A stretch of 64,000 nt of DNA from Acidobacteriota bacterium (GTDB taxonomy: Bacteria; Acidobacteriota; UBA6911; RPQK01; JAJDTT01): NCBI GenBank assembly GCA_965217775.1, contig CBDCJH010000002.1, positions 3,616,001 through 3,680,000 on the forward strand, in the 5' to 3' direction. Numbering within the stretch: the first letter of the stretch is position 1; each line of letters begins with the position of its first letter. A program made the position numbers and the translations under genes. Positions 1 to 15,434 of this stretch are shown here, one piece after another. The notes beneath the pieces are model-generated. The model had not been told where the DNA came from. It searched no databases and saw only the letters and a program-made list of their open reading frames with translations.

Positions 1-205
1 CCAACCGTTCCGCGGGTTGGGGCTGATCGTCGGGGGAGAGTTCCCACTCGACCTGCACCGCCTCCCCGGCGTCATTGGGAAAGTCGACGGCCCGCACTTC
101 ACCGGGCGGCCGGGGGGATTGCGCCAGGACCGGAGAGGCCCCTCCCGAGAGGACGAGACCGCCGGCCAGCACCGAAAAGAAAATCGATTTGTCCATCTTG
201 TTCAC
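1..205 (-). CDS. Partial (runs off the window edge) exported/membrane protein, probably the FN3/DUF6754-type partner of GlmL clusters
   Basis: Manual translation: VNKMDKSIFFSVLAGGLVLSGGASPVLAQSPRPPGEVRAVDFPNDAGEAVQVEWELSPDD. It has a signal peptide and a D-x-P-N-D-x-G motif; the GTG start overlaps the TGA of the upstream gene (GTGA, 202-205). Confidence 0.6.
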   Translation of the reverse strand, partial: MNKMDKSIFFSVLAGGLVLSGGASPVLAQSPRPPGEVRAVDFPNDAGEAVQVEWELSPDDQPQPAERL

Positions 206-1326
206 GCCTCGATCAGTTCCACGTTGGCCCGCGGCACCACCAGCCGCCGGCCCGACTCCGAGCGGACCTCCAGCACCCGTGCCCGGGACCCGGAGCCCAG
301 AACCTGGGGTTCGGCCGGAAGCCCGGAGACCACGCCGATCAATCCGAAATGCGGGTCCCGGATCACCCGCACCGGCGTTCCCAACTCCAGCCTGCCGACA
401 GGACGCGCCTCGTCCACTTCCACTGCCTCTCCGGGAGCCGACGGAATCACGATTTCCGGCCGCAGGACCCCGGCGCGAATCTGAGTCGCCCCGTTGACTG
501 ACGCTGGGTCCCCTTCCCGGGAGGCCAGCAACTGGAAGGTCTTGCGGGCCATGGCGATTCGGCCGAACCCTTCGGTGATGATCAGGGTCGTCGCCACCGG
601 TTCCGATCCGGTGATGGCGACCCCCAGGTCGTAACCCAGGATCTCCCTTAGATCCGCATCGTCCATGCCTCCCGAGACCAGGGCCGAGATGCCGATCCGA
701 AAGGCCTTGCGGACGGCTCCTCCCGTCATCCGGCTGCCGCCGACCACGACGGCTCCCTTCATCCCCTCTTCCAGCCGCTCGGCCGTCAACTCTTCCTTCT
801 CGTCCCGGCAGGCCATTCGGACGGGCCCGAAGGCCTCGCCGCCGATTCCAAAGATCCCCTGGATGAAGGTGGCGTCCGCCTCCAGCACGACCCCTTCTCC
901 CGGGATCTCCTCGACCACCTGGCCGGCCAGATAGGCCAGGACCCGGACCGGGATCGGTTCTCCGCGAAGGATGACCTGCCCCGTGACTTGGGAAATGGAC
1001 TCGATGGTCCCCGCAACCCTGGCCCTGCACTCCGACTTGAACAACCCGAAAATGCCCTTGGTCCGAGCCAGGGCCTCGCCGGCTTCCACCCGCATGCCGG
1101 GCTCCTTGAGCATGCATTCGGGGACGTCCGCGGGGGGCAGCGACAGGAGGTTGGCCACGTTGACCGGCGTGATGCTTCCCGGCATGAAGGTCTGGGCGAC
1201 CACCTCCCGGGAGTCCACCTGCTGTCCCGCCCGAACCAGAACATCTCCCTTGATGGGCAGGATCCGCCGGCAGCGATGTCGGGTTCGAGGACTGACCTTC
1301 AGACCTGGGGTGTATGCGTGGGCCAT
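202..1326 (-). CDS. Conserved protein associated with GlmL/MutL clusters (barrel-sandwich hybrid-like N-terminal part, KOW-like C-terminus)
   Basis: 374-aa ORF MAHAYTPGLKV...VNGATQIRAGVLRPEIVIP...GTPVRVIRDPHFGLIG; directly downstream of the GlmL-like gene. Confidence 0.8.
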   Translation of the reverse strand: MAHAYTPGLKVSPRTRHRCRRILPIKGDVLVRAGQQVDSREVVAQTFMPGSITPVNVANLLSLPPADVPECMLKEPGMRVEAGEALARTKGIFGLFKSECRARVAGTIESISQVTGQVILRGEPIPVRVLAYLAGQVVEEIPGEGVVLEADATFIQGIFGIGGEAFGPVRMACRDEKEELTAERLEEGMKGAVVVGGSRMTGGAVRKAFRIGISALVSGGMDDADLREILGYDLGVAITGSEPVATTLIITEGFGRIAMARKTFQLLASREGDPASVNGATQIRAGVLRPEIVIPSAPGEAVEVDEARPVGRLELGTPVRVIRDPHFGLIGVVSGLPAEPQVLGSGSRARVLEVRSESGRRLVVPRANVELIEA

Positions 1327-1341
1327 CCTCCGTTGACCTCG

Positions 1342-3162
1342 TCAATCCCGTTCCGGAACCGCGGGCACCAGTTCCAAATCCCGGACCCATTGAGTCATGG
1401 CCTTCCGGCAAGCCTCACGACCGGAGGGCAACGTCAGCGGACGTCCCCTCGCGTCCAGCAGGACTCCCACCGTCCCGCCCCTGAGCTCACCCTCCAGGGG
1501 CCGGCCGGGACCCGCCCCCGCATCCACTTTCCGTGCCGGCTCCACCACAATTCGCGCACTGGCTCCCAGGCCCAGCGGCAGCCGCTTGACCTCGCCGAAG
1601 GAGAGGGCGCCCTCGTTCTCCAGGCCGTCGCCGGAGATGGAATAGCGGAAGGCCGGGCTGCCCCAGGCGCCGGTTCCCCTGGGAGCCACGCAGGTTCCCA
1701 GGGAGATGAGGCAATCCCTCTGGAACACCTGGAGCGCGGCCTCCGGGTGGACCTGGGCCAGAACCCCCAGGTGCGGCATCATGAAGATGCTGTCCTTGGC
1801 CAGCCAGGTGATCCCCTCGGGCTGAAAGGCGTCCACCAGGAGCGCCGCCGTCTGCTGCATCAAGGGGGCATGGGAAAGGACTCCTCCCGATCCCACCAGC
1901 AGATCCAGCTTCATGTTGTCCACCAGGGTCTGTCCGCTGGCCTCCTGCCTGAAGGTGTCTCCCACGGTCCTCTGCTGCTGCACGCCCTTGAGCGTGGTGG
2001 CGAACTGCTTGTGCTGGTCATAGGCCAGGCGCAGGGCCTCGCGCGCCACGGCCTGCTCGAAGCACAGGGATTCCCGGGTCTGGGGAATCGTGGTGGGGCG
2101 GATCATCTTGTTCTTGACGTGGTTCCGCAGCTCCCCCTCCTCCATCTCCAAGTGGACCCAACGGAGGATGGAGGGCAGCGTCGCTTCGGCACAGACGTTG
2201 GAGATGGAGTAGCTCATTCCCAGGTTGGCGCTCACGGTGCGGTTGAAGGTGCCGTCGAAGACGCTGAAGACGTCGGTCGTGGCCCCGCCGATGTCCACGC
2301 CGACCACGTTGATCCGCTGCTGTTCGGCGATCCTCTGCAGGATGTTCCCCACCGCCCCCGGGGTGGGCATGATGGGGGCGTCGGTCCACTGGATCAGCCG
2401 TTCGTAGCCGGGGGCATGCGCCATGACGTGTTCCAGAAACAGGTCATGGATCTTGTCCCGGGCCGGACCCAGATTCTCCCGCTCCAGGACCGGACGCAGG
2501 TTGGGAACGACGGAGAGCTGGACCGACTCGTCGAAGGTCTGCTCCACCAGCGGCGCCGCGTCCCGGTTCCCCGCGAAGATCACCGGCATCCGGTACTCGG
2601 CTCCGAAGCGGGGCTGGGGACGGGCCGGCGCGATGAGCTCGGCCATCTGCACGACGTGGCGGGTGGTCCCGCCGTCGGTCCCTCCCGAGATCAGCACCAT
2701 GTCGGGCCGCAGCTCCCGGATCCGGTGGATCTGCTGGTGGGGGAGGCGGCGGTCATTGGAGGCAAGAACGTCCATGACGATGGCGCCGGCGCCCAGGGCC
2801 GCCCGCTTGGCGCTGGCGGCCGTCATCTCCCGCACCACGCCGGCCACCATCATCTGGAGGCCACCGCCGGCACTGGAAGTGGAGATGTAAAGATCGCACC
2901 CTTCACCATCGGCAGCGGGCCGGAGAATCCGGCCGGCATCGTCGATGAGGCGGCGGCCAGCCATTTCGGCCACCTCCGAGACGGCGTTCACGACGCCCAG
3001 GGTCACGTCGGCCGCCGGTTCCTCAACCGTCGTGGGAGCCTCGCCCCGGTGGGTCTGCCGGTATTCTCCACCGACCTTTTGGATGAGGATGGCCTTGGTG
3101 GTGGTGCTCCCGCAGTCGGTGGCCAGGATCACGTTGATGGATTCGGGATCGATCTGCTTCAT
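1342..3162 (-). CDS. glmL: Glutamate mutase L (GlmL/MutL-like) ASKHA ATPase
   Basis: Phosphate-1 motif ILATDCGSTTTK, TSSAGGGL, phosphate-2 motif VDIGGATTDVFS and GSGGVLSHAP. The ATG at 3162 overlaps the stop of the upstream ORF. Confidence 0.85.
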   Translation of the reverse strand: MKQIDPESINVILATDCGSTTTKAILIQKVGGEYRQTHRGEAPTTVEEPAADVTLGVVNAVSEVAEMAGRRLIDDAGRILRPAADGEGCDLYISTSSAGGGLQMMVAGVVREMTAASAKRAALGAGAIVMDVLASNDRRLPHQQIHRIRELRPDMVLISGGTDGGTTRHVVQMAELIAPARPQPRFGAEYRMPVIFAGNRDAAPLVEQTFDESVQLSVVPNLRPVLERENLGPARDKIHDLFLEHVMAHAPGYERLIQWTDAPIMPTPGAVGNILQRIAEQQRINVVGVDIGGATTDVFSVFDGTFNRTVSANLGMSYSISNVCAEATLPSILRWVHLEMEEGELRNHVKNKMIRPTTIPQTRESLCFEQAVAREALRLAYDQHKQFATTLKGVQQQRTVGDTFRQEASGQTLVDNMKLDLLVGSGGVLSHAPLMQQTAALLVDAFQPEGITWLAKDSIFMMPHLGVLAQVHPEAALQVFQRDCLISLGTCVAPRGTGAWGSPAFRYSISGDGLENEGALSFGEVKRLPLGLGASARIVVEPARKVDAGAGPGRPLEGELRGGTVGVLLDARGRPLTLPSGREACRKAMTQWVRDLELVPAVPERD

Positions 3163-3473
3163 TTGCCGGCCGAATCGAGTTCTTCGATCCGGCGACAAAG
3201 ATAGTCCACCGAGCCCCGATGCTCAAGAAAGGCGGCCAAGTGCCGGTGTCCGTGGGACTGGGTGAGTCCCGAGAGCATGGGCGACAGGAAATGCAGCAGC
3301 TGGGAACCCAGGAAGTTGAGGGGGCGGGACATTTCAAGAAACATGAGAGCCGACGTGGCCAGCCGGCGCCGCACCAGTTCCCGGCAGATCCGATCGGCCA
3401 CCTGGCGCTGCTCGTCCGAGGGTTGGAACTCGGACGGAGTGTCTACGGCAAAGGCGTGCCGCCAACCCTTCAT
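3159..3473 (-). CDS. Small conserved hypothetical protein of the GlmL cluster
   Basis: MKGWRHAFAV...LMFLEMSRPLNFLGSQLLHFLSP; coupled to the glmL start through ATGA. Start trimmed from the ORF track. Confidence 0.7.
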   Translation of the reverse strand: MKGWRHAFAVDTPSEFQPSDEQRQVADRICRELVRRRLATSALMFLEMSRPLNFLGSQLLHFLSPMLSGLTQSHGHRHLAAFLEHRGSVDYLCRRIEELDSAGK

Positions 3474-3570
3474 CGATTTTCCGTCGTCCTTTGTTGCCAA
3501 TCTCAGGTCCCCGGGACAGTGTGGGGAATTATAGCCCGAATTTCTTGGAACTTGGGAATCGCGCCCATGC

Positions 3571-3598
3571 TTTACACCCGGAGAGCGGCTGCTACAAT
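3571..3598 (+). promoter_or_regulatory. Putative sigma70 promoter for the FAH gene
   Basis: TTTACA (3571-3576), 16-nt spacer, TACAAT (3593-3598) with an extended TG; a divergent TATAAT lies on the minus strand at 3528-3533. Confidence 0.45.
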
Positions 3599-3663
3599 AC
3601 ACGGGCTGAACAGAGCGTGAGGACTCCGGGAGCAGGCTCCCGCACTCGCAGGGAGAGAACGAA

Positions 3664-4629
3664 ATGAAACTAGCCACGTGCAGCCGGGGGGAACGCTCCT
3701 TCGTCGCCGTAGCCACGGACGATGGACGGGTGGTGGACCTGGTTGCCGCCGACGCCGAGCTGGCCCGGAAGGAGGAGAGCCCTCCCCACGCGTTCTTTCA
3801 GGACATGATCGAATTTCTGGAGCACGGGAACCAATCCCGGGAGGCTGCCGAACGGGCCGCCCGGGCAGCCCTGGAGACATCTGGGTCCCAGGCGGACGGA
3901 GCCGCCGTGCACCGACTTTCCGACGTGCGCCTGCGGGCTCCGGTGGCGGTGCCCCGGAAGCTCTTCTGCCTTGCCGGCAACTTCCAGGACCACATCGAGG
4001 AAGGCGGACATAAGATGGACTCCCAGGACAAGGAGACCCCCCGCTTCTTCATGAAGCCCGCCAGCACCTGCGTGATCGGTCCTGGGGACGGCATTCGGAT
4101 TCCACCCGTGGCCCGGGCCATTGACTGGGAGGGAGAGCTGGCGGTGGTCCTGGGCCGGCGGGGCAAAAAAATCTCCCGGGACCAGGCGCTCGACTACGTG
4201 GCCGGATATACCATCATGAATGACGTGTCGGAGCGGAAGCTCAAGATCTGGCCCCGGAGCGAGGACCGCCCCCAGGACGAGTGGTTCGATTGGCTCAACG
4301 GGAAGTGGCTGGATTCCGCCGCGCCCATGGGACCCTGGATCGTCACCACCGACGAGATCCGGGACCCCCAGGACCTGCAGATCAGCACCTACGTCAACGG
4401 AGACCGAAAGCAGCACAACAGCACCAGCCAGATGCTGATTTCAGTGGCCGAACTCATCGAGTACATCTCGGCCATCGTCATGCTGGAGCCGGGAGACGTG
4501 ATCAGCACCGGCACCGTCTCCGGCGTCGGAAACGTCACCGGGGAGTACCTCAAACCGGGAGACCGGGTGGAGGTGAATATCTCGAAAATCGGCGTTCTGG
4601 GAAACCCGGTCGTCGCAAGTTCCAGCTAG
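3664..4629 (+). CDS. Fumarylacetoacetate hydrolase family protein
   Basis: KLFCLAGNF, FFMKP, DWEGELAVV, YTIMNDVSER, GK..D...PMGP and LEPGDVISTGT motifs. Confidence 0.93.
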   Translation: MKLATCSRGERSFVAVATDDGRVVDLVAADAELARKEESPPHAFFQDMIEFLEHGNQSREAAERAARAALETSGSQADGAAVHRLSDVRLRAPVAVPRKLFCLAGNFQDHIEEGGHKMDSQDKETPRFFMKPASTCVIGPGDGIRIPPVARAIDWEGELAVVLGRRGKKISRDQALDYVAGYTIMNDVSERKLKIWPRSEDRPQDEWFDWLNGKWLDSAAPMGPWIVTTDEIRDPQDLQISTYVNGDRKQHNSTSQMLISVAELIEYISAIVMLEPGDVISTGTVSGVGNVTGEYLKPGDRVEVNISKIGVLGNPVVASSS

Positions 4630-4708
4630 GAGCCTGCGGCGCAGACTCCTAGCCGTCCGCGGGCGCACCGTTTTTCAATCCTGATTCGCATTCGAGGGTG
4701 AGGTAATT

Positions 4709-5218
4709 ATGGCTCGATATATCGAAATCACTCTCAAGAAACGCAAGATCAGTTGCGTCGCCCGTCTCCTGGACGAGAAGGCGCCCCGGACCTGCGAGGC
4801 GGTCTGGAACGCCCTGCCCCAAGAGGGAGAGGTGTACCACGCCAAGTACGCCAGCAACGAGATCTACATCCTGGTCCCCGCCTTCGCTCCCGAGGAGCCG
4901 GGCCCCGAGAACTGTTCGATGGTTCCGGCGGCCGGAGACGTCATGTATTTCACGCTGGACTCCGGCCTCCAACTGCCGGTCCGGTCCGAATCGGGGGCTC
5001 CGGTCATCGATCTGGCCGTATTCTACGACCGGGACAATCTGCTCCTCTCCCCCAAAATGGGGCCGACGCCCGGCAACGTCTTCGCCACCATCATCAAGAA
5101 CCGGGACGCCATACGCGACGGGGGCAACAGCGTCTGGCGCGAAGGGGCGGTGGGAGAGACTCTGGCCTACAGCCGGCTGGAGGGCGAGGCATTGCGCGCC
5201 TGGGGCATCGAGCCGTAG
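4709..5218 (+). CDS. DUF3830 family (cyclophilin-like fold) protein
   Basis: ARLLDEKAPRTC..VWNALP...HAKYASNEIY signature; RBS GAGG upstream. Confidence 0.8.
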   Translation: MARYIEITLKKRKISCVARLLDEKAPRTCEAVWNALPQEGEVYHAKYASNEIYILVPAFAPEEPGPENCSMVPAAGDVMYFTLDSGLQLPVRSESGAPVIDLAVFYDRDNLLLSPKMGPTPGNVFATIIKNRDAIRDGGNSVWREGAVGETLAYSRLEGEALRAWGIEP

Positions 5219-5256
5219 GTTCGATCTCGGAATGCCGTCTGCCCGGTCGTGCAGGG

Positions 5257-6216
5257 TCAGATGTGGATTCCGGGCCAGGCCTCACGAATCCGCTGCTCCA
5301 GGATCGACTTTGACACCGGTTTCTCCAGCCGCAGCCGAGCGGTCGCATTCTTACCCAGAGCGTCGCGGGGGGCCAAGCCCACGATTTCCGAGGAGGAGAC
5401 CCTGGTGCCCAACTCATGGGCGTGGCGGTCCACAGTCTCGAAGAGCCGGACCAGGGAAGTCCTGCGAAAGTCGGTGAGATTGGTGCTGACCTGCCCCTGA
5501 TTCCGGCTGGCGATCCACAACCCCAGCGCCTTGACGCCGGGCAGGCCACCGTCCCGTTCCCGGATCCGGGCGGCCACTTTCCGTGCCACGGTCAGATCGG
5601 GATCTTCGAGAACCATGTTGTAGGCGATCAGATAGTCCCGCGCTCCGACGCAACTGACTCCGACCGTCGGATGGGGGCGAGGGGGTCCGAAGTCGGGTGC
5701 CCAGGCGGGGTTTCGCGCCATCCGCCGTCGCAGCGACACCAGACCTCCCCGCCGGAGGTACGCCAGGGATCTTCGCTCGGGACGGGTCGCCGCCCGCTCG
5801 TAGAGATAGACCGGGAGTTGGATCTCTTCCGCCAGAGCCTTTCCCAGCCGGCGAGCGCTCCGGATGCAGTCGGACATGGTGACGCCGCGGATCGGCACGA
5901 ACGGAATGACGTCCACGGCGCCGATCCGGGGATGGACGCCTCGATGCCGGGAGAGGTCCAGGAGGTCGACGGCCCGGCGGCACAGCGCTGCCGCGGCCTG
6001 CTCAAGGCCCGGAAGAGAGCCCGCCAAGGTGAAGACGGTCCGGTGGTGGTCGACGTCGGCGTCCCAATGGAGCACAGCGGCGGCGGGCGTCTCGGCCGCC
6101 GCCCGGGCCAGTTCGCGGAGAACGGCCGGGTCGCGGCCTTCGCTGACGTTGATCACGCACTCGGCAAGCGAGGATATCGCCGTCCGCTTGTTCTCCCCAC
6201 CTCTCCCCACACTCAC
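5257..6216 (-). CDS. ftcD: Glutamate formimidoyltransferase
   Basis: ECVINVSEGRD, DVDHHRTVFT, HRGVHPRIGAVDVIPFVP, GARDYLIAYN, QVSTNL and SEIVGLAP motifs. Start uncertain; GTG at 6216 follows an AAGGGAG RBS. Confidence 0.9.
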   Translation of the reverse strand: MSVGRGGENKRTAISSLAECVINVSEGRDPAVLRELARAAAETPAAAVLHWDADVDHHRTVFTLAGSLPGLEQAAAALCRRAVDLLDLSRHRGVHPRIGAVDVIPFVPIRGVTMSDCIRSARRLGKALAEEIQLPVYLYERAATRPERRSLAYLRRGGLVSLRRRMARNPAWAPDFGPPRPHPTVGVSCVGARDYLIAYNMVLEDPDLTVARKVAARIRERDGGLPGVKALGLWIASRNQGQVSTNLTDFRRTSLVRLFETVDRHAHELGTRVSSSEIVGLAPRDALGKNATARLRLEKPVSKSILEQRIREAWPGIHI

Positions 6217-6900
6217 CCCCGAATCTCCCTTGCGTTGCCCCCCATGACACAGTCGTTCCTCTGCGACCATCGCGCCCAAGACTCGTCTTGCTCCACACTA
6301 TTGGATATACTCGCCATTCTTGAATCTTCGAACGAATGCTTGGGAGACCAATTCCAACCAGAAACATGCGTCAGGCGTCCCGGGATAATTTCCACCAAAC
6401 AGTCAAAGATTCGGAAGAAAAGTCATGGCGTCCATTACGGGGTCGTCTGGAAATAGCTACGTTCGAACCGGGCGGTGTCTGCCCCCCCGATATCAGAAAT
6501 CTGAATCGTTTCCCCTATAGCAAGACCACCTGCATATTGCACGCGCCGTTATCGAGATCCTGCATAGGATTCGCAGCTGTATCACCGAACAGCTCGGACA
6601 CGCATTCTGACACCGGCCGGGAGACTCCTCCGTGCCAATATCTCGCACTTGCGCCACGTATGATCACCGCTCGCGACGGCACTGATCTTCTACGGCGTCA
6701 TGGTACACTAGAAGTTAGATTACTCCACATTAACCAAACAATACCTCCTACGCTTCGGACCTACCTATCATCGGCCCCAGCAAGCGTGGTCGGCATCTAG
6801 ATTTATTGAATGTCTTAGACTTCATGCTCAGGTGTACGTGTAACATTGTCAACCTCCGGAACATGTCTCGCCAAAAAGAACCTGATCGAGAGCAGACTCA

Positions 6901-9900
6901 TTGGACACATATATGAACTTACCAACACAACCCTCCGTGCCAAGTGGCCTTCCTGCCTATTTGGTTGGACAAGCCGGATTTGATCACCTTTGCACCCTCC
7001 TCGGCATTGAAACCACAGCCCGCAAACAAAGTGTCGTTGGCAGCGAGGCCGTTAGACGTGCTCTGAAACAACTCGGCCCTGCGCCACGAGGCCTTCGCAG
7101 GGCCGGTCGCCTGAAGTGGAGCTTGGTAACCTTCTATAGCTCGCCACGACATCGGCTTAGGAACTGGCAAATTCACGTAGATGCTGACCTCGATTCATCC
7201 AAGTTAATACCATCCCTTGAAGCAAACATTATAAGCAAATTCGACAACGATCTGTATACCGCCGCGATCGATGATGCCGCATTAGTCGACTGCCATAACT
7301 TCTTTGACGCTGAGGAGGAATTGGAGCCATGGAAACAACCCGCCGTCGGTGCCCTGCCGATAATACATAGAGAAATCCTCAACTGGCAGAAGCTCGAACT
7401 CAAACGGCGTGATATCGTGGCGTTAGCCGCCTTCGCCGTCGCGACGATTCTGGAGGACTCACGTTTACTCTTCTGGGCCGCTGAAACAGTTGACGACCTC
7501 GCTACAGAATTCTCGTTCATGGGCGACTCTTTCACCTCCAGAGTCGACGATGTAGAGTCTGATCAAATCTCCAACGTTCCAGCCAGGAAGCAAAATGTCG
7601 TACAAACGTTTCGCAATGCATGCAAGGACTTGGCTGAAATCGCATTGAAACTCCGCTGTGACCCACCGGACTTCCAGTTATTCCAAGATCTGTCACGTCG
7701 CTACGACGCTGTCCGGGACTTAAGAGAACGCGCCATCAGCGAATTGGTAGCAAACCAGGTAACGAATTTTCTGACTGCAATCGAAGAAACCATCCTCTCG
7801 CAAGCCACAGACGCCTCATGGCTGGGGGGAGAAGTAGAGAAGATTCTCGCGTCATGGGCTGGAGAGTATCCCACCAACAATACCGATCTTGAAACCCTGA
7901 AAACCGATGTCGAGAGGGTTAAGCACGACTTGCCAGTCGCCATAAATGCGTGGCATTCGGCGGTCAAGACTACACAGACGATGTTGCGAGATTTGCGTGA
8001 GGTCGAAGTGGAAGGAGGTCTCGCCGGTCAGCTTAGTGCAAACAGGCGTGCCGAAGAACTCTATACGGCCATCGCAGCCGCAAAACGCGGCGAGATCGAT
8101 GCGATTCATCATGCGCTCCAATTAGCGTCGCCTAGTGGCCAAGGCTGCACAATCGCATCTGCCGCTCAGTCAGAGGAGGAACCTCTTAGTAACCAGAATG
8201 CAGAATTGACGGATAACGACAACGGCATCGAAACAACCCAGGAGCACCAAGCGCCCTTCCAGCATCAACCTGAACCACCTCCGGCCAAACCAGACATTGT
8301 CGGAGGCGGCGATGTTCATCCCACTATCGTCCAAGAAACAACCGCGACAGACGCCACCGAATCCCCCACCGCGACCGATCAAGCCACCACTCGCAATATC
8401 TCGGACGAATCCACCCTCCCACAATCTGAGACTGGAGACCAACTTGACTCACCTATCAGCGCGCTCGCTGAACCTGCTTGGCAAGCCATTGGACATCACC
8501 TTCCAGGTATCGCCTACCACATCGTACGCCTGACACCGTTTGAACAGCGAAACCCGACGTTTCCTCCCGCGGATCTCGTCGCAGCGGCCGCTGTGGCTAA
8601 TTCCGTAAATGTACCAAATGATAAAGTCGTAGAGACGCTTACCGAGTACTTGACAGGGATTCATCCTAACGACTTGAAACGGGATAATGAAGACGTCCGC
8701 GATGCTTTACACTTGTTACTTTTGTCAGCAACATTGCGTCCCGCTCTCTTCGCTCCATCAGCTGGCGGACTGTCGCAGTTGCGGCATTTAGAACTATCTT
8801 CTGCTTTTTCCTCAGTGTACGAACTTGCCGAAGTCGTCGCCAATCACGCAGAGTCATTGCAGGCCATAAGCCTTGACGTTGCCCGAGTTCGAGGCGCCCT
8901 TAGTAAGACTGCGTGGCAATACCAAGTTGAACAGCACATGGAAGCTGTTCAACAGTGGCTTCGAAATGCCGGCTCTCAGCGCATCCTCCATGGTCCTACA
9001 CAACGTGTGTGGAAACACTGGCAACGTAAAGATGGCATATTGGGAGAACTCGTCGATCTTCTCTTGAACATCGACCAAACAAATCAAGATAGAGTCCGGG
9101 AGATCCAAGCGAAACTTGAAGACCGACAGGCATACGTTACTCTTGTCAATTACACAGACCGGATTCAACTAGGACGAAAGACGGGCAAAAACATCGAAGG
9201 CCGTGCGTTGACCCAGCTTCGCAAGCACACAGTTCCGATACTAGAGTTCTTGCGGAATTGGCATCGCCTCCTCGCAGCTAAACCAGATCCTACAAATTAC
9301 ATCGACCGCACAATCGTCTCCCTTCGGCACGCTTTGCATATACACGGTCCGGCCGCTATCTTGACACTCAACAATTTCGAGCTCCAACAGCCAATACTGC
9401 CAGTTGCCGCTGCCATTAAATGGGCTCGCATTTCCATTGAAGATTTAGTGGCCTTATTCGACAGCACGGATGCCGTCGATGTCACCGAGCGACAACCGCA
9501 ACTCGTCAACGTCGATCACGATCTCGTGTTCGCCGTTGACGTGGATATAGATCGTGACTATCACTTCGCGGATGGCCAAGACCCTAAACTATGTCTCAGC
9601 TACCTTGCCCAAACAGCCTTGCGTCCCCCGACATTACCAGAAGCGTTTCACGCACGTTCCGGGAGAGGTGATTTAATTGGTGCTAGGCTAGCGTGTGATC
9701 GTATGGACGCAGTCGCCGACTCAGAAGCTGACCGTTGTCGCATTGATCTCGATAACATTATCCAACAAAAGCGTCGCGAATTACGCGCGCTCCGGATGAA
9801 GTTAACCGGCGACATTGAACAGAGCTATTGTCTAGGACAACTCACGCCGGACCAACGCGATGATCTAGCCGCGCGGTGTGTCGCGACCCACGTGGCTACT

Positions 9901-12900
9901 ACACACGCAGACACCGTAACGATCGCAATCAAAGAACTGAGAGCAATTGATGGGTGCCTCCGCGAGTATCGCGATAAGAGCACTGCAACGTTGATCAATA
10001 GCATTCGTGAATTGAAAGGCAAGGCGACGCCCGAGGAAATGTCACTCATTAAGGAGGCCCAAGACACGAATGATCTCGTAACAGTGCGAGAGTACGCGGA
10101 ACGTCTTAAAAATGGAAATCCAATTATAGCCACCGGCTCATCCGAACCGGACAGTTTTGCTGATTTTCTCGACGCCCTGCCCGAGATCAATAATGTACTT
10201 GAAGCATCGAATCGCCCGACACACGGTTCGATTATTGCGGCGGTTAAACGGCGAGAAAGCGTCGCTAGCATTAATTTTGCGTCCATGACCGAACATGAAG
10301 CCACGCAGGCGAGCCATCTCCTAGAGGCGTGGTATCAGATTGCTAGATATCACGAACTGGACAATCGCCTACTCCGCGATCTTTTCTCCCTACTCGGTTT
10401 TGACGTAAAGACAGTCGAGACCGCTGGCGACCGGATAGCAGTAGTCCAAACTGAACCGTTGCAAGACCGAACGCTGTGTCCGATACACATGTTCGGCTCC
10501 GCTGCTAACGGTCAGTACAGGGTCCTACTAAACTGGCGCACACCGGCCCGTGATTCGCTCGTCCAGGCAATCGGCGGACTACGCGGCCAACTTATGGTCC
10601 TCCATTTCGGTCCCCTTGGCGATGATAGAGAGTTCCTTCGCAATTGGTCCTTACAAAACCAACGTCTTTTCCTAGCGATTGACGAAGCTCTGGTACTCTT
10701 TCTTGCCGCAAGACCCAACGGTCGTTTAAAAGCCCTATATGATTCCACACTTCCATACACGGCCGCAGATCCGTTTGTCACGACTTCAAGCCTAGTACCT
10801 CCCGAAATGTTTTATGGTCGCACCTACGAACGGGAGGAAGTGATGAACCAATATGGCGGCTGTTTCGTCTACGGCGGTCGCCAACTTGGGAAGACGGCGC
10901 TTCTCCGTTCCGCAGAAACAGTCTTTCACCACCCAAAGACTAGGCACATCGCTAAATGGATCGATCTCAAAGTTCGTGAAATTGGTTATGCCCGTCAGAC
11001 TGAAGACATTTGGAGCGTTCTTTGGAAAGAGCTAACCGAGGTCGGTATCATTCCTGAAATGGGCTCTCAGCCTAAAGGTACACGCAGCCTCGTTTCGACT
11101 CTCACGCGCGCCATAAAAGAGTGGCTCAAGGACAACAAAGACAGTCGGATCCTATTGCTACTGGACGAAGCGGATGCTTTTCTCGAGGCAGACGCCCACA
11201 CAGATTTCCTTGAGTCTACACGACTCAAGGGATTGATGGATGAAACCGAACGTAGGTTTAAGGTAGTATTTTCTGGTTTACACAATGTATTGCGGACCAC
11301 AGAACGAGCCAACCACCCGCTCGCTCACTTCGGTGATCCCATCTGCATCGGCCCACTTCTCCACAACGGCGAGTGGCAAAGCGCGAGGTCCTTAGCAAGG
11401 GAACCGCTTGCTGCAATCGGTTTTGGATTCGAACATGACAACGTTGTTACGCGTGTACTTGCAAGAACCAACTACTATCCATCGCTTATACAACTATACG
11501 GTGCTGAGTTGGTCCGGTACTTACGTGACTCAACTAGAGTACCTCCCTATCAGGTACGAGCCGACGATGTTAATGCCGTTTTCATGAGGGATGGTCTTCG
11601 CAACTATATTCGAGCCCGTTTTCTTCTCACGCTGCAGCTTGATCCACGCTATGAGGTCATCGCCTATTCAATGGCTCTAGACTTGCAGGAGCACGCGGAG
11701 AACTTGGCAAACGGGTTGTCTTCTGAACACATCGCAGAACAAGCACGATCATGGTGGCCGGATGGCTTCGATATCCCCGACATTGAGTTTGATACGCTAC
11801 TACATGAGATGGCCGGTCTAGGGGTCTTGCGACGCACGATAACAGAGTCCCATGAAGGACAACGTTACACGTTTCGCAACCCCAACGTTTTATTGTTGCT
11901 AGGCACAGCCAGTGATATCGAAAAAGCGCTGTATAAGCCACGAGAATTACCAAAGATATTTGAGGCATCATCGTTTCACGCTAGGTATGTTGGCGACGAT
12001 GATTCACCAAAGCGAGGTCCGCTTACCTACGATCAGGAGGCACGACTTCGAAATCACAGAGGCGTCGCGATACTTACGGGCACTCAAGCAGCAAATATTA
12101 GACAGGTTAGCAAGTTTCTCTCGGGTCGATTAGGGTCGAGTAATTTCAGGGAACTTGAGCCATGCTATGACACAAATAGATTGGAACGCCAGCTCACAAG
12201 TTTACGACCTGATCGACGACAGGGCCTCCATGTCTACATGGTGCCCTTCGAAACTCCGTGGAGTGCGCTATGGCTTGACAGAGCTGCCAAAACTCTTAGG
12301 AGAGTCCAGCGACGCAATCTAATTCGAGTCGTGTTCATTGCTGAACCACAGACTCTATGGAGTGTGTTGGCCGACATCGACGAAAACGCGATTCTTGCGT
12401 ATCTTAAGTCGGACACTAGGTATCTTAAGTCGGACGCTCGACAAACTCGCAAACGGATTGATTGGATAGGTCTTGGACCTTGGGATTTCAGCTTCCTGCG
12501 CCGATGGTGTGATGACCACGATCTTCAGGTCGATCAGGAGGTTATCGATAAGTTGATGGAAATGTCGGGAGGATGGCCGAAGATCTTGGAGCAATACGAC
12601 CGATCTCCTCATAAGCATTCACGAAATAGGTTGGCGGCATTGGATCAATTCATTATCCGCCACCGTTCCGATCTGTTGCGGCATCTGGGAATCGATACGC
12701 CTCTAGTTCAATTCGAGCTTGAAACATTGTTTTCGTACGAGGCATTCACGCCCGATCAGGTGATCCAGCTTGTAAAAATGCAACGAGAGTCACGGGAAGA
12801 ATCTCTTAGCAGCGTTTCGTTGCGGCGACGTTTGATCTGGGCACAACATCTCGGCATTCTGCAGAACCCGACTGGAACCTGGCAGGTCAATCCTCTAGTT

Positions 12901-12927
12901 CAGAAAATGCTAAAGAAAGAGTCTTAA
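6901..12927 (+). CDS. 2008-aa multidomain STAND-type P-loop NTPase (one intact and one degenerate NTPase module)
   Basis: FYGR, Walker A GGRQLGKT (10873-10896), Walker B ILLLLDEAD, TNYYP helical motif and a winged-helix-like LHEMAGLGVL. A second module has a degenerate Walker A (ILTGTQAA), SGGWP and a second wHTH-like segment. Confidence 0.85.
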   Translation: MDTYMNLPTQPSVPSGLPAYLVGQAGFDHLCTLLGIETTARKQSVVGSEAVRRALKQLGPAPRGLRRAGRLKWSLVTFYSSPRHRLRNWQIHVDADLDSSKLIPSLEANIISKFDNDLYTAAIDDAALVDCHNFFDAEEELEPWKQPAVGALPIIHREILNWQKLELKRRDIVALAAFAVATILEDSRLLFWAAETVDDLATEFSFMGDSFTSRVDDVESDQISNVPARKQNVVQTFRNACKDLAEIALKLRCDPPDFQLFQDLSRRYDAVRDLRERAISELVANQVTNFLTAIEETILSQATDASWLGGEVEKILASWAGEYPTNNTDLETLKTDVERVKHDLPVAINAWHSAVKTTQTMLRDLREVEVEGGLAGQLSANRRAEELYTAIAAAKRGEIDAIHHALQLASPSGQGCTIASAAQSEEEPLSNQNAELTDNDNGIETTQEHQAPFQHQPEPPPAKPDIVGGGDVHPTIVQETTATDATESPTATDQATTRNISDESTLPQSETGDQLDSPISALAEPAWQAIGHHLPGIAYHIVRLTPFEQRNPTFPPADLVAAAAVANSVNVPNDKVVETLTEYLTGIHPNDLKRDNEDVRDALHLLLLSATLRPALFAPSAGGLSQLRHLELSSAFSSVYELAEVVANHAESLQAISLDVARVRGALSKTAWQYQVEQHMEAVQQWLRNAGSQRILHGPTQRVWKHWQRKDGILGELVDLLLNIDQTNQDRVREIQAKLEDRQAYVTLVNYTDRIQLGRKTGKNIEGRALTQLRKHTVPILEFLRNWHRLLAAKPDPTNYIDRTIVSLRHALHIHGPAAILTLNNFELQQPILPVAAAIKWARISIEDLVALFDSTDAVDVTERQPQLVNVDHDLVFAVDVDIDRDYHFADGQDPKLCLSYLAQTALRPPTLPEAFHARSGRGDLIGARLACDRMDAVADSEADRCRIDLDNIIQQKRRELRALRMKLTGDIEQSYCLGQLTPDQRDDLAARCVATHVATTHADTVTIAIKELRAIDGCLREYRDKSTATLINSIRELKGKATPEEMSLIKEAQDTNDLVTVREYAERLKNGNPIIATGSSEPDSFADFLDALPEINNVLEASNRPTHGSIIAAVKRRESVASINFASMTEHEATQASHLLEAWYQIARYHELDNRLLRDLFSLLGFDVKTVETAGDRIAVVQTEPLQDRTLCPIHMFGSAANGQYRVLLNWRTPARDSLVQAIGGLRGQLMVLHFGPLGDDREFLRNWSLQNQRLFLAIDEALVLFLAARPNGRLKALYDSTLPYTAADPFVTTSSLVPPEMFYGRTYEREEVMNQYGGCFVYGGRQLGKTALLRSAETVFHHPKTRHIAKWIDLKVREIGYARQTEDIWSVLWKELTEVGIIPEMGSQPKGTRSLVSTLTRAIKEWLKDNKDSRILLLLDEADAFLEADAHTDFLESTRLKGLMDETERRFKVVFSGLHNVLRTTERANHPLAHFGDPICIGPLLHNGEWQSARSLAREPLAAIGFGFEHDNVVTRVLARTNYYPSLIQLYGAELVRYLRDSTRVPPYQVRADDVNAVFMRDGLRNYIRARFLLTLQLDPRYEVIAYSMALDLQEHAENLANGLSSEHIAEQARSWWPDGFDIPDIEFDTLLHEMAGLGVLRRTITESHEGQRYTFRNPNVLLLLGTASDIEKALYKPRELPKIFEASSFHARYVGDDDSPKRGPLTYDQEARLRNHRGVAILTGTQAANIRQVSKFLSGRLGSSNFRELEPCYDTNRLERQLTSLRPDRRQGLHVYMVPFETPWSALWLDRAAKTLRRVQRRNLIRVVFIAEPQTLWSVLADIDENAILAYLKSDTRYLKSDARQTRKRIDWIGLGPWDFSFLRRWCDDHDLQVDQEVIDKLMEMSGGWPKILEQYDRSPHKHSRNRLAALDQFIIRHRSDLLRHLGIDTPLVQFELETLFSYEAFTPDQVIQLVKMQRESREESLSSVSLRRRLIWAQHLGILQNPTGTWQVNPLVQKMLKKES
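12399..12435 (+). repeat. In-frame 21-bp-period tandem duplication
   Basis: GTATCTTAAGTCGGAC at 12399 and 12420, encoding YLKSDTR-YLKSDAR. Confidence 0.9.
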
Positions 12928-12932
12928 CTAAA

Positions 12933-14048
12933 ATGAGGCTATGGGATTTGCCTGGGGCCGTACGGTTTGTTGATGCGATACAGCAGTCATTACGTGCTGG
13001 TGTGAATGTGGTTGCTCGGTTTCCCAGGACGGTTCCATCAGGATTCCGGGACACAGTTTCATTGGGTCTAACTCAGTTACTTGCTGTCGGAAGTATCGAG
13101 TGCGGACCCTCGCCGTTCGAACAGCTCTGTGGGAAGTTTTCTCCCGGTAGATTTTTTCAAGAGGACGACCTGCAGGAGCTGTGCGAGGATGATGGCTTTC
13201 AGGGACGTCTTATTTGGCTGGAGCGCCTCGACGAACGAACGTGGCCCAACTGGCGGACCTTCTTGACACGATATGCACAAGCAAGTCGGAACGTTTCTGC
13301 TTTTGGACGAACGTTATTTATGGCGACGCTTGACGGGGCACCGCCTGGGGATCCACTGGACGCTGACGTCACAATCGTGACGCATGATTGGTCTAATGTC
13401 ATAGACGAAATTGACCTTCTGTTTCTGGCCAATGATCGGTTGTTGCCGACGAAGTCCGATCCGGTTCAACGGCTACTACTCTCTACTACCGTGGCGAGGG
13501 TGGCGTCTTGGGACTTCGAGACGGCGGGACAGATGCTCGACGGCGGGACAGAAATTATTCTCGATCCCTTGGAGATGTTGAGGTCAATTGCAATTTGCAA
13601 GGGCTGGACAACTGCCACACCAGTTGCTTGGGAATTGGGAACTGCTTCGGGTAGTGGGGTTGTCCACCCAGCCCTTGCTGCTCTCGAAAACCCAGCAAGG
13701 GAGATCCGCCGACGGCTGTGGAGCGCTCAGGCGTCCGTACTGTTTCCACTCATCGAGTCTCGACGGGACGAGATCGTACGGCGGAATCTGTATGTAATTC
13801 GACGATACCTGCACAACTGCGGTGACGATGCGACAGATCCTCGGGACATGGAGATCGGTGACCTGTATTCCATGTTTCGGCGCGCAAATGGAAGCTGGCG
13901 ACTCCGAAAAAGCGTCAAGAGTCTCCGCAATGCCCGTAATGCACTTGCCCACCTAGATCCGTTACCGGCACAACAAGCCCTTGAACTGGCGCGAGTCAAT
14001 CGTGGCTATAATTCTAGAATGGGCAGGACCCATTTTACGATAAACTAG
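12933..14048 (+). CDS. 371-aa protein with a C-terminal HEPN-like RNase motif and a possible inactive NTPase-like N-terminus
   Basis: C-terminal DMEIGDL...LRNARNALAHL (R-x4-H at 13935-13952); starts 5 nt after the NTPase stop. Confidence 0.7.
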   Translation: MRLWDLPGAVRFVDAIQQSLRAGVNVVARFPRTVPSGFRDTVSLGLTQLLAVGSIECGPSPFEQLCGKFSPGRFFQEDDLQELCEDDGFQGRLIWLERLDERTWPNWRTFLTRYAQASRNVSAFGRTLFMATLDGAPPGDPLDADVTIVTHDWSNVIDEIDLLFLANDRLLPTKSDPVQRLLLSTTVARVASWDFETAGQMLDGGTEIILDPLEMLRSIAICKGWTTATPVAWELGTASGSGVVHPALAALENPAREIRRRLWSAQASVLFPLIESRRDEIVRRNLYVIRRYLHNCGDDATDPRDMEIGDLYSMFRRANGSWRLRKSVKSLRNARNALAHLDPLPAQQALELARVNRGYNSRMGRTHFTIN

Positions 14049-14155
14049 TTATCAGCATGATTCCATGCTCGGCCAGGGGCGAGCCTTTACGCGAAATCGC
14101 GACAGTTTCAAGGCCGAGAGGATTAGGATTGGACTAATGAGAACAGCCCGCTGAC

Positions 14156-15058
14156 TCAGTTGCGCCTACTGTTTCGCTCGATCCCCTCTTCTTGCTTTAC
14201 TCGTTTCGTTCTCATTCCCGAGTTCTCTCCCTGCAGGATCACCCGGGCTACCGTAAGGATCAGGATTCGACCGGCTTTGCCGTCCCGCTTGAGGACCTTT
14301 GAGGTCTCGTGGGAGGTGGCGCCCGTGGTGAGGATGTCGTCTACCAGGACCAGATCCTCTCCCGAGATTCGGCGTGCCTGCCGGAGCCGGAAGGCGTTGC
14401 GGACGTTCCTCCTTCGAGCCTTCAGGTCGAGTCCGAACTGGGGCAGAGTCGGACGCGACCTGCAAAGGCCCGGGAACACCGGAAGGTTCAGTCTTCGGCC
14501 CAGGGTTCGAGTCAGGAGGAGCGTCTGGTCGAATCCCCGTTTCCTCCGGCGCCGCGGATGGGAAGGGACCGGGACCAGCCAGGAAGGTGAAAAGGGATCG
14601 GGCCGCGCCCGGTAGGCTTCCTCCAGCAGGGACGCCAGAGGATGCGCCAGGCGGCGGTGGCCGGAGAATTTGAAGCGATGGATCAACAGTCTCAGGGTTC
14701 CGGCGTACGGTCCCCAGGCCCGAGTCGAGTGATGGAAGGGTCGTGTCCCCCGGCAGGACGCGCAGGGCTCCGGAGCCCCTGGATCTTTCTCCCGATCCGG
14801 AACCGGCAAATCACCGGCCGGCGCAGGCCCGCCACAAATCGGGCAGAGAGGATCCTGGAACCTGGGCAGTTGCAGGAAGCATTCGGAACAAAGGGGACTG
14901 GCATCCGGATTGGCGACCCAGCGGCCGCACAGGACGCAGCTTTGGGGAAAAAAGAGGACTTGGAGCCCCTGGAAAAGGCGCTTCCACAGAGTGATCCCCG
15001 GAACGGAAGACACACTGAACGAAACGTCCGATCCGGAAAACCTGCGAAGAGAATCCAA
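14156..15058 (-). CDS. comF: ComF family protein (double zinc ribbon plus PRTase domain)
   Basis: FPQSCVLCG, CSEC, CPICG, CASC, VPVP.H..R...RGFDQ and LVDDILTTGAT motifs. Confidence 0.9.
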   Translation of the reverse strand: MDSLRRFSGSDVSFSVSSVPGITLWKRLFQGLQVLFFPQSCVLCGRWVANPDASPLCSECFLQLPRFQDPLCPICGGPAPAGDLPVPDREKDPGAPEPCASCRGTRPFHHSTRAWGPYAGTLRLLIHRFKFSGHRRLAHPLASLLEEAYRARPDPFSPSWLVPVPSHPRRRRKRGFDQTLLLTRTLGRRLNLPVFPGLCRSRPTLPQFGLDLKARRRNVRNAFRLRQARRISGEDLVLVDDILTTGATSHETSKVLKRDGKAGRILILTVARVILQGENSGMRTKRVKQEEGIERNSRRN

Positions 15059-15074
15059 GTCCCCGAGGGAAGTG

Positions 15075-15434
15075 TCAGGAAAGTCGGCCCGACTCTTTCA
15101 TCTCCTGACAGTGGACGCAGAGAAGTGCCCAGGGCACAGCCTCCAGCCTCCGGCGCCGCACGGTTTCGCCACAGTGGGTGCACTCACCATAAGAGCCGTC
15201 CTGGATTCGTTCCAGGGCCTCCTCAACCAGGATGATCAATTGCCGTTCCAGGTTGCTGAGGCTGAACATGAACTCTTTGGTGTAGGACTTGGAGGCCCGA
15301 TCCGCCATGTCCATGGCTTCGCCCTCGCCGTCTATCTCCCGGCCATAACTCTCGGCCTTGTGGACGACGTCGATGAGTGCGGTTTTCTTTTGCAGGAGCT
15401 GCTTCTTGAAGTAGTCCAGGTCTCTGGATCTCAT
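15075..15434 (-). CDS. dksA: TraR/DksA family transcription factor
   Basis: DMADRA coiled-coil tip and YGECTHCG...RLEAVPWALLCVHC zinc finger. Confidence 0.88.
   Translation of the reverse strand: MRSRDLDYFKKQLLQKKTALIDVVHKAESYGREIDGEGEAMDMADRASKSYTKEFMFSLSNLERQLIILVEEALERIQDGSYGECTHCGETVRRRRLEAVPWALLCVHCQEMKESGRLS

Follow-up and report, generated by a model that had tools for sequence, protein, structure and literature searches.

The window analysed here is a stretch of 64,000 nucleotides from an Acidobacteriota bacterium (assembly GCA_965217775.1, contig CBDCJH010000002.1, positions 3,616,001 to 3,680,000 of the forward strand). It contains an island with two adjacent genes, A and B, of which A encodes a giant ATPase and B a much smaller protein. 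A first-pass annotation, made from the sequence of the window, had proposed that B is an inactive nucleoside triphosphatase (NTPase) fold fused to a HEPN RNase and a partner of A. The locus is composed as follows, with positions numbered within the window.

6171..14226, no strand: island of about 8.06 kb, holding genes A and B only.
6901..12927, plus strand: gene A, 2008 amino acids, taken from the list of open reading frames (ORFs) and an alignment of 19 full-length homologues.
12933..14048, plus strand: gene B, 371 amino acids with an ATG start, beginning 5 nucleotides past the stop codon of A.

Neither Pfam nor NCBIfam nor PADLOC yielded a match to the B protein of the window at E ≤ 1. Homologues are numerous. 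A word-indexed search in which 8000 candidates were scored retrieved 174 at E ≤ 0.001, and an exhaustive search of cluster representatives at 50% identity retrieved 1060, of which 686 are still matched at E ≤ 1e-10 and 203 at E ≤ 1e-30, under the same cut-off of 0.001. Among the 150 matches listed, nearly all were 350–390 amino acids long and aligned end to end with B. No fused A-B forms were found among proteins of 668–2000 amino acids, which is weak evidence by the search's own account, and tblastn of B against phage records retrieved no relative. Conservation was counted in an alignment of 138 B homologues with 26–82% identity to B. The following parts of B were delimited on the basis of this alignment and a structural model.

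12933..13682, plus strand: residues 1 to about 250, an AAA+ domain of ORC/Cdc6-STAND-like type without Walker A, predicted to be inactive, built of an alpha/beta core of five strands plus lid-like helices.
13698..14027, plus strand: residues 256 to 365 approximately, a helical domain and probable HEPN RNase.
13755..13766, plus strand: conserved acidic/basic pair E275-x-x-R278, located on the long helix that opens the helical domain, a candidate for the upstream acid of HEPN sites.
13935..13952, plus strand: putative HEPN catalytic motif R335-N-A-L-A-H340, at the C-terminal end of helix 322–339.

The AlphaFold2 model of B, built from the 138-sequence alignment, had a mean predicted local distance difference test score (pLDDT) of 94.1 and a predicted template modelling score of 0.90. 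Its N-terminal half alternates helices (H) and strands (E) in the order H7–21, E25–30, H38–44, E51–56, H61–69, H80–85, E92–97, H104–120, E128–134 and E148–152, followed by five helices up to residue 222 (159–222). The first-pass annotation had read a P-loop-like alternation from the sequence, quoting the strings RFVDAIQQSLRAGVNVVARFP, RLIWLERL and LFMATL. All three are present in the B reading frame, and the model bears out the order. In a Foldseek search against the PDB, seven chains were retrieved at E ≤ 0.001 (3.3e-4 to 9.5e-4), all of them clamp-loader or ORC AAA+ subunits (RAD17-RFC, A. pernix ORC2, Drosophila ORC3, E. coli clamp-loader chains, CTF18-RFC and HolB). When the top Foldseek chains were re-aligned, 229 out of 950 reached Z ≥ 8. 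VIA-align, a search independent of Foldseek, was run against 48,161 PDB representatives, and the best 50 rows were all AAA+ or STAND proteins (Z 11.1–8.0). These were headed by Cdc6 7jgr_G (Z 11.1, root-mean-square deviation (rmsd) 4.7, 209 aligned residues) and Cdc6 1fnn_B (Z 11.0), and included Avs5 9jap_A (Z 10.5), the AAA+-like domain of Sir3 (Z 10.3), Dark, NRC2, Apaf-1, CED-4, RdrA, Avs3 and BrxC. BrxB, HepT, RnlA and those further HEPN structures that appear neither in the rows listed here nor in those for the isolated C-terminal domain (below) are not thereby excluded as matches. The AAA+ match ended at or before model residue 256 in 46 of the 50 rows, mostly at 208–256. Three more rows ended at 261–268, and only Mdn1 (6or5, rmsd 9.8) and Rad24-RFC (8fs8, rmsd 23.7) extended beyond.

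At the place of Walker A, the loop between strand 1 and helix 1 of B reads P31-x3-P35-x-G37 (conserved in 132, 117 and 101 of the 138 homologues, respectively), and K[ST] occurs inside this loop in none of them. R126 is conserved in 135/138 homologues, and R119 is conserved too. Residues 1 to about 250 of B are therefore, as modelled, an AAA+ fold of ORC/Cdc6-STAND type that lacks Walker A. The dead STAND-like N-terminal half without Walker residues, as first proposed, agrees with the AAA+ fold devoid of the P-loop lysine found with AlphaFold2, Foldseek and VIA-align. One homologue, P0210, alone among the 138, carries the string GIGKS at residues 37–41 approximately, just behind the loop, where strand 1 joins helix 1. 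The string may be a remnant of the Walker A motif that was lost.

The N-terminus of B also carries a highly conserved W4-x-L-P-G8 (window 12942–12956; W4 in 132/138, P7 in 132/138 and G8 in 137/138), which has no obvious role for an AAA+ fold. It was the source of a spurious match to the Rab 'WDxxG' motif. A profile of 38 close homologues retrieved Rab32 with an E value of 0.012, in an alignment starting at the Rab 'WDxxGxxRF' motif, and a profile of the N-terminal domain retrieved it at 0.023, with UPF2 at 0.006. With the 138-sequence profile, Rab was lost and UPF2 and ferritins were retrieved instead. As the fold is AAA+ and not Ras-like, Rab/Ras kinship was rejected as a chance match.

The C-terminal domain of B is all-helical in the model (256–284, 286–295, 308–317, 322–339, 346–354 and 358–365). 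The R-x4-H that the first-pass annotation had pointed out lies exactly where it was placed, and its Arg and His, on whose conservation the proposal of a HEPN RNase depended, are the sole invariant columns of the alignment (R335 and H340, 138/138 each). A motif of this kind is expected 0.52 times by chance at the composition of B (39 R, 5 H). As a single R-x4-H is at chance level in such an arginine-rich protein, the case for HEPN rests on conservation and structure. The second R-x4-H of B (residues 362–367) is not conserved (R in 5/138, H in 1/138). Beside the invariant pair, L338 is found in 136/138 homologues and A339 in 116/138. According to Anantharaman et al. 2013 (PMC3710099), HEPN domains fold as a four-helix up-down bundle and have an Rx4-6H motif with a polar residue, mostly N, D or H, immediately after the Arg, and a conserved upstream acid near the motif, typically in Ex3[KR]. 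Residue 336 of the B homologues is N in 128, H in 5, D in 4 and R in one, i.e. N, H or D in 137/138. Position 275 is E in 127 and D in 9, and R278 is present in 134/138; the spacing here is E-x2-R, versus the E-x3-[KR] typical of HEPN. In the model of full-length B, the motif helix (322–339) is followed by a loop (340–345) and a further helix (346–354), and a model of the isolated domain (pLDDT 84.5) has the same arrangement (H93–110, then H117–134).

Profile and fold comparisons of this domain gave matches to HEPN families and structures, all below significance. HEPN_Swt1 of Pfam was matched by 13 out of 59 B members at E ≤ 1, and any other family by four members at most. A scan of 79 further members at E ≤ 0.05 gave 17 matches, among them 11 to HEPN_Swt1, one to HEPN_RiboL-PSP, two to DUF4145, which we take to be a member of the HEPN clan, and two to DUF2019. 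All matches are confined to the motif-bearing region. When the isolated domain was searched with VIA-align, the best row was Cas13b 9fcv_A, residues 1000–1122 (Z 6.8, rmsd 3.7, 93 aligned residues), a C-terminal part that is presumably the HEPN2 domain. Other HEPN-type structures among the best 50 rows were AbiF 8vz6_B (Z 5.5), 1wwp_B (Z 5.5) and 2hsb_A (Z 5.3), and Csm6 4rgp_B (Z 5.1) and HI0074 (Z 4.8) were also among them; the HEPN-type proteins represented there are Cas13b, AbiF, HEPN-T, Csm6 and HI0074. Entry 9fcv is listed with a Cas13b preprint (bioRxiv 10.1101/2024.11.17.623997). Together, these results make it likely that the C-terminal domain of B is a HEPN domain.

Gene A is built of a variable N-terminal part of 1160 residues, a conserved core (1161–1700) and a C-terminal region (1701–2008). 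The core contains the ATPase module.

10798..11535, plus strand: AAA+ ATPase core of A, residues 1300–1545 approximately, of AAA_22/AAA_16/ATPase_2 (STAND/ORC-like) type.

The mean pairwise identity of A homologues to the window protein is 28% for residues 1–1160, 53% for 1161–1700 and 34% for 1701–2008. With high conservation in 1161–1700 and low conservation in 1–1160, this is the pattern that a conserved switch joined to a fast-evolving sensor would predict. Walker A (G1325-GRQLGKT1332, nucleotides 10873–10896) and Walker B (LLLLD1422-E1423-AD, nucleotides 11152–11175) are unchanged in all 19 full-length homologues. The window protein has a weak Pfam AAA_16 match, 18 of the 19 homologues matched AAA_22 and/or AAA_16 at E ≤ 0.01, the AAA_22 score exceeding its cut-off of 27 bits in nine, and the atlas neighbours of A are clusters of AAA_22/nSTAND1 type. 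The Pfam scan of A and its 19 homologues detected no domain outside the ATPase. ATP synthase beta, the sole PDB match of a sequence search with A, was discarded since its E value of 0.24 is at chance level. The first-pass annotation had also envisaged a complex with one active and two inactive NTPase modules. This was not supported: the one dead module found is in B, and profile comparisons within A and between B and A came back empty. In a profile comparison of nine segments of A with each other, none rose above 5%. Residues 421–525 of A (window 8161–8475) contain many Gln, Pro, Thr and Glu residues. No other part of the protein is so poorly conserved (mean column identity 0.27, versus 0.43–0.69 in other parts), and the segment is probably a disordered linker.

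The association between the two genes was followed in 33 loci, recovered with the B profile from contigs of one genome per species. An A homologue was found by tblastn directly upstream of B, over at least about 1270 residues, in 24 of them. Six more contain C-terminal pieces of A alone, two of which are cut by contig ends, and the remaining three lack A; B is partial or distant there. An NTGA overlap of start and stop codons occurs at the start of B in 24/33 loci, and for 22 of these 24 the ORF lists show that the upstream ORF ends on that TGA. B is thus a fixed, translationally coupled operon partner of A in most of the 33 loci, and this linkage bears out the pairing of B with A that had been suggested for the window. 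There is no third conserved gene, and neighbours vary by locus. The loci come from metagenome-assembled genomes of Acidobacteriota, Gammaproteobacteria, Binatia, Gemmatimonadetes and Opitutales, and relatives were also found on five plasmids. One of these, pSR118 of Salinibacter ruber, encodes a 1927-residue 'ATP-binding protein' and a 377-residue hypothetical protein that constitute an A/B pair (L035, positions 6215–13134), located among transposase genes, a gene for a 1721-residue DUF3320 protein and type I-E cas genes. By our own labelling, 13 out of 17 loci have a Pfam domain of defence or mobile-element type within three ORFs on either side (for example AbiEii, PIN, DndB-like, type I R subunit, methylases, ABC-3C parts, DUF4143 and transposases). 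The case for a defence role is drawn from this context, because no PADLOC model matches A or B. In another locus (L012), the A/B pair is followed, at a distance of about 1.5 kb, by a Swt1-family HEPN gene (positions 12545–15224, minus strand, 47.3 bits), which we used as a reference. It adjoins a DUF5343 gene and forms a small HEPN module of its own within that variable region.

In three loci (L001, positions 9015–11074; L005, 9255–11089; L007, 8943–11098), an intact B lies behind an ORF with only the C-terminal part of A, of 329, 249 and 353 residues, respectively. The upstream ORF of L007 (7650–8300) looks transposase-like by eye. These remnant loci may mark the part of A that binds B, or they may be decaying copies. 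They also bear on a toxin–antitoxin reading, in which B would be a constitutively active RNase toxin restrained by A, or by the C-terminal tail of A, until A is lost or inactivated. HEPN toxins with cognate neutralizers are common (PMC3710099), and the remnant loci fit a tail that is sufficient for neutralization. However, a B that does no harm in the absence of A would explain them just as well. Moreover, an ATPase of 2000 residues with invariant Walker motifs far exceeds what a neutralizer needs, and the dead AAA+ domain of B suggests regulated assembly. We regard a toxin–antitoxin pair as distinctly unlikely.

The island differs from its surroundings in composition, with a GC content of 49–56% versus 61–68% in the flanking kilobases. 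In five out of five congeners (genomes of the same genus), the flanks are only 207–684 bp apart, i.e. the pair is missing at that site. Relative to one of them, G002, the insertion ends map to 6170 and 14227 (blastn), and G002 has a 206-bp spacer there instead. No repeat of 8 nucleotides or more flanks the island, no tRNA gene was found within window positions 1–25000, and scans for promoters and terminators around the operon gave counts not above those of shuffled sequences. The A/B pair is present elsewhere on the chromosome in two of the five congeners. B was detected in four out of 41 related genomes, including the source genome: three of the eight others of the genus and none of the 32 outside it. 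A/B is a horizontally mobile two-gene module with a patchy distribution. At the right-hand end of the island, the last 24 or so codons (14156–14226) of a minus-strand ORF (14156–15058), which judged solely by its translation encodes a ComF-like phosphoribosyltransferase, fall within the inserted segment. The insertion appears to have replaced the 3' end of this ORF, because homology with the congeners begins only at 14218–14241.

These data also speak to whether A/B could have a housekeeping role in RNA processing or replication. Its nearest folds, the ORC/Cdc6 and clamp-loader subunits, would be in keeping with such a role. On the other hand, the absence of the insertion from the site in all five congeners, the presence of B in only 4/41 relatives, the variable neighbours, often of defence or mobile-element type, and the carriage on plasmids argue against it. 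We consider it highly improbable.

On balance, we favour the view that A/B is a self-contained mobile conflict module, most likely anti-phage, in which A is an ATPase with an intact ATP site and B combines a dead AAA+ domain with a HEPN-type RNase effector. What the data show are the folds, the missing Walker A and the invariant motif of B, together with the linkage of the two genes in an operon, their mobility and their patchy distribution; RNase activity, physical contact between A and B, activation by oligomerization and the defence role itself are predictions of this view. A would act as the ATP-driven sensor and switch, its N-terminal 1160 or so residues sensing the invader, and B would be the effector chain. 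The AAA+ domain of B, an inactive STAND ('iSTAND') module, would be unable to bind ATP in the usual way and might instead dock on the ATPase module of A, like the inactive subunits in ORC, clamp loaders and BrxC-BrxB. Known HEPN RNases, such as Cas13, Csm6 and RNase L, need paired domains for a complete site. After sensing, ATP-dependent assembly may similarly bring two HEPN domains of B together and complete a composite R-x4-H site. Metal-independent cleavage of RNA by HEPN would then halt the cell or the phage, i.e. cause abortive infection.

Several results weigh against this view. Of the 5027 models of PADLOC-DB v2.0.0 (2023), compared with both proteins at E ≤ 1, no family was retrieved for A and none for B, and in four of the 17 loci all neighbours are either of housekeeping type or without an assignment. 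The N-terminal domain of B has no profile similarity to any Pfam STAND family, and when the halves of B were compared with ten segments of A by hhalign, the best probability was 1.5%. An acid is kept at the Walker B position of B (residue 97, at the end of strand 3) in 97/138 homologues (E in 54, D in 43), followed by G in 83/138, so that B may still make some contact with a nucleotide or metal. As for the HEPN domain, the best HEPN_Swt1 (PF18731) score was 22.9 bits versus a cut-off of 27.5, and all Pfam matches were sub-threshold. In hhalign comparisons, the probability was 9.5% with a true Swt1-HEPN protein and 7.6% with its family, with the motif helix alone aligned; the latter is a weak comparison, since the homologues of that protein are all 76–100% identical and the profile is shallow (effective number of sequences, Neff, 1.5). 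Foldseek of the isolated domain retrieved nothing at E ≤ 0.001 (best 2.8), and its VIA-align scores (Z ≤ 6.8) are in a range common for helical bundles, with G-protein-coupled receptors and designed bundles interleaved. Every profile and fold match to HEPN is thus below significance, and the assignment is probable, not proven. The HEPN identity first proposed for B is therefore sustained in part: the motif, its place at a helix end, the N after the Arg and the conserved upstream Glu speak for it, and the profile and fold scores fall short.

The same scores leave some room for B as a regulator or adaptor that is not a nuclease. In that case its C-terminal helices would be a lid- or collar-like extension of the dead AAA+ domain, the invariant Arg and His would bind phosphate, nucleotide or A, and any effector activity would reside in the N-terminal 1160 residues of A. 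Besides the sub-threshold HEPN comparisons, this is in line with the Foldseek alignments, which span the whole of B (370–457 columns) in three-domain clamp-loader and ORC subunits, and with BrxB-type iSTANDs, thought to be adaptors or sensors (PMC12839542). However, the AAA+ matches found by VIA-align stop by about residue 256 in 46/50 rows, the invariant pair has exactly the form R-N-x-x-x-H, with N in 128/138, and lies at a helix end, the only recurring Pfam families in B members are HEPN ones, and A has no Pfam domain beyond the ATPase. An adaptor without nuclease activity is, in our judgement, unlikely.

The closest description in print is that of the nSTAND2 operon. It encodes two STAND proteins, one of which has eroded NTP motifs and is fused to a variable effector, mostly GT4 or HEPN; a hetero-multimer was predicted, and a conserved arginine finger was reported in both proteins (PMC8195603). 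A/B shares this layout, being a mobile operon of two adjacent genes with an active STAND-type module in A, whose Walker motifs are invariant, and a dead AAA+ domain with a probable HEPN domain in B. A/B could accordingly be a plain member of the described nSTAND2 system (Kaur et al. 2021). In addition to the shared logic of an active and an eroded STAND with the latter fused to HEPN (PMC8195603), the inactive rows of the published alignment start, as B does, at residue 1 and are, by eye, Pro-rich at the place of the P-loop. However, the published rows have motifs that are not seen in B, and the nSTAND2 family PF20702 was not matched by A or B at E ≤ 1, by 59 B homologues at E ≤ 1, by 79 more at E ≤ 0.05, by the 19 A homologues at E ≤ 0.01 or by any protein of the source genome at E ≤ 1. 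Since PF20702 matches neither the proteins, their homologues nor the genome, membership of the nSTAND2 family fails as judged by Pfam, and we find it improbable that A/B is simply an nSTAND2 system. A/B differs further in the size of A, about 2000 residues with some 1300 before the ATPase. No GT4 variant was seen among the A/B homologues examined.

Inactive STAND modules have been described as iSTANDs (PMC7159879 and PMC12839542), a concept that fits B. In BREX, according to PMC12839542, the Walker-less iSTAND BrxB/BrxF works beside the ORC/Cdc6-type ATPase BrxC (PDB 9zll, 9zdx), and in some BREX subtypes the iSTAND is fused to a nuclease effector (PglW, PglZ). A/B likewise has a dead STAND/ORC-like domain beside an active ATPase, and BrxC matches the fold of B (9zdx_A, Z 8.8; 9zll_A, Z 8.5). 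However, BREX genes, including those for a methyltransferase and PglZ, are absent from the island, and the probable effector of A/B is an RNase and not a DNase. BrxB itself is described as being without a C-terminal helical bundle and with a three-stranded cap inserted after strand 4 (PMC12839542). In contrast, B keeps the lid-like helices 159–222, with AAA+ lid alignments reaching 220–256, and has only a loop (135–147) between strands 4 and 5.

Fusions of HEPN to STAND ATPases and to DUF499 AAA+ proteins are listed in PMC3710099, which also links HEPN with ATPases in conflict systems. The Swt1/Abi2 clade of HEPN (PF18731) resembles B in the R-N-x-x-x-H at a helix end, the all-alpha fold, the conserved upstream Glu and the association with ATPases. 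B differs from this clade in that it scores below threshold, with the motif helix alone aligned, and in that its HEPN domain is C-terminal to a dead AAA+ domain and on a separate chain from the active ATPase. The Avs/AVAST systems also combine a STAND-type switch with a nuclease-type effector, and Avs5 (9jap, Z 10.5) and Avs3 (8dgc, Z 9.0) match the N-terminal domain of B. However, effector, active NTPase and sensor are in one chain in Avs, whereas A/B has its effector in another chain, which includes a dead NTPase domain. No PADLOC Avs model matches A or B. Full-text literature searches found no published description of the A/B pair. We regard A/B as a distinct, large family that lacks annotation and follows a design principle already in print.

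A distant branch of the family has a different N-terminus on the ATPase. In two loci (L033, positions 35–9229, and L036, positions 1–7683, the latter on Microvirga plasmid NZ_CP069357), an A-type AAA_22 ATPase carries, fused to its N-terminus, a complete pPIWI-RE (Argonaute-like) module, comprising pPIWI_RE_X, MID and an RNaseH-like PIWI domain. The fusion protein of L033 has 3065 residues. The downstream partner (L033 9236–10882; L036 7683–9296) is B-like over its full length (hhalign 99.7%), with the motif RNKVAH, and has an extra C-terminal AAA_33 kinase-like P-loop domain at residues 390–485 approximately (E values of 2e-10 and 4e-14). The plasmid record labels the Microvirga partner an 'AAA family ATPase' because it carries this AAA_33 domain, and the label was therefore dismissed as a sign of an active N-terminal NTPase. 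In the 2013 pPIWI-RE paper (PMC3702460), the terms HEPN and AAA+ have no occurrences.

B-type clusters at 50% identity number at least 1060 and are spread over several bacterial phyla and plasmids, and A/B could be the first pair of a large defence family that has no name yet. We offer this tentatively, as a proposal that may well prove too broad. In such a family, an ATPase hub would couple interchangeable N-terminal sensors to a chain with a dead AAA+ and a HEPN domain. One branch, in which a pPIWI-RE module replaces or extends the sensor and the effector gains a kinase-like P-loop domain, would connect the guide-dependent recognition of nucleic acids with a STAND switch and an RNase. If so, Argonaute-like sensing could lead to abortive infection by a new route, through the pPIWI-RE-fused branch.

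If the proposed function of A/B is true, an inactive AAA+ domain fused to HEPN would represent a widespread, so far unannotated effector architecture in bacterial immunity. Next to nSTAND2 and the BrxB of BREX, it would provide a second, independent example of a dead STAND/ORC-like subunit that joins an active ATPase switch to a nuclease. Hetero-assemblies of active and inactive AAA+ modules would then be a recurrent design of prokaryotic immunity, as they are in ORC and clamp loaders, and A/B would offer a compact two-gene system for asking how the assembly of an ATPase licenses a HEPN RNase.

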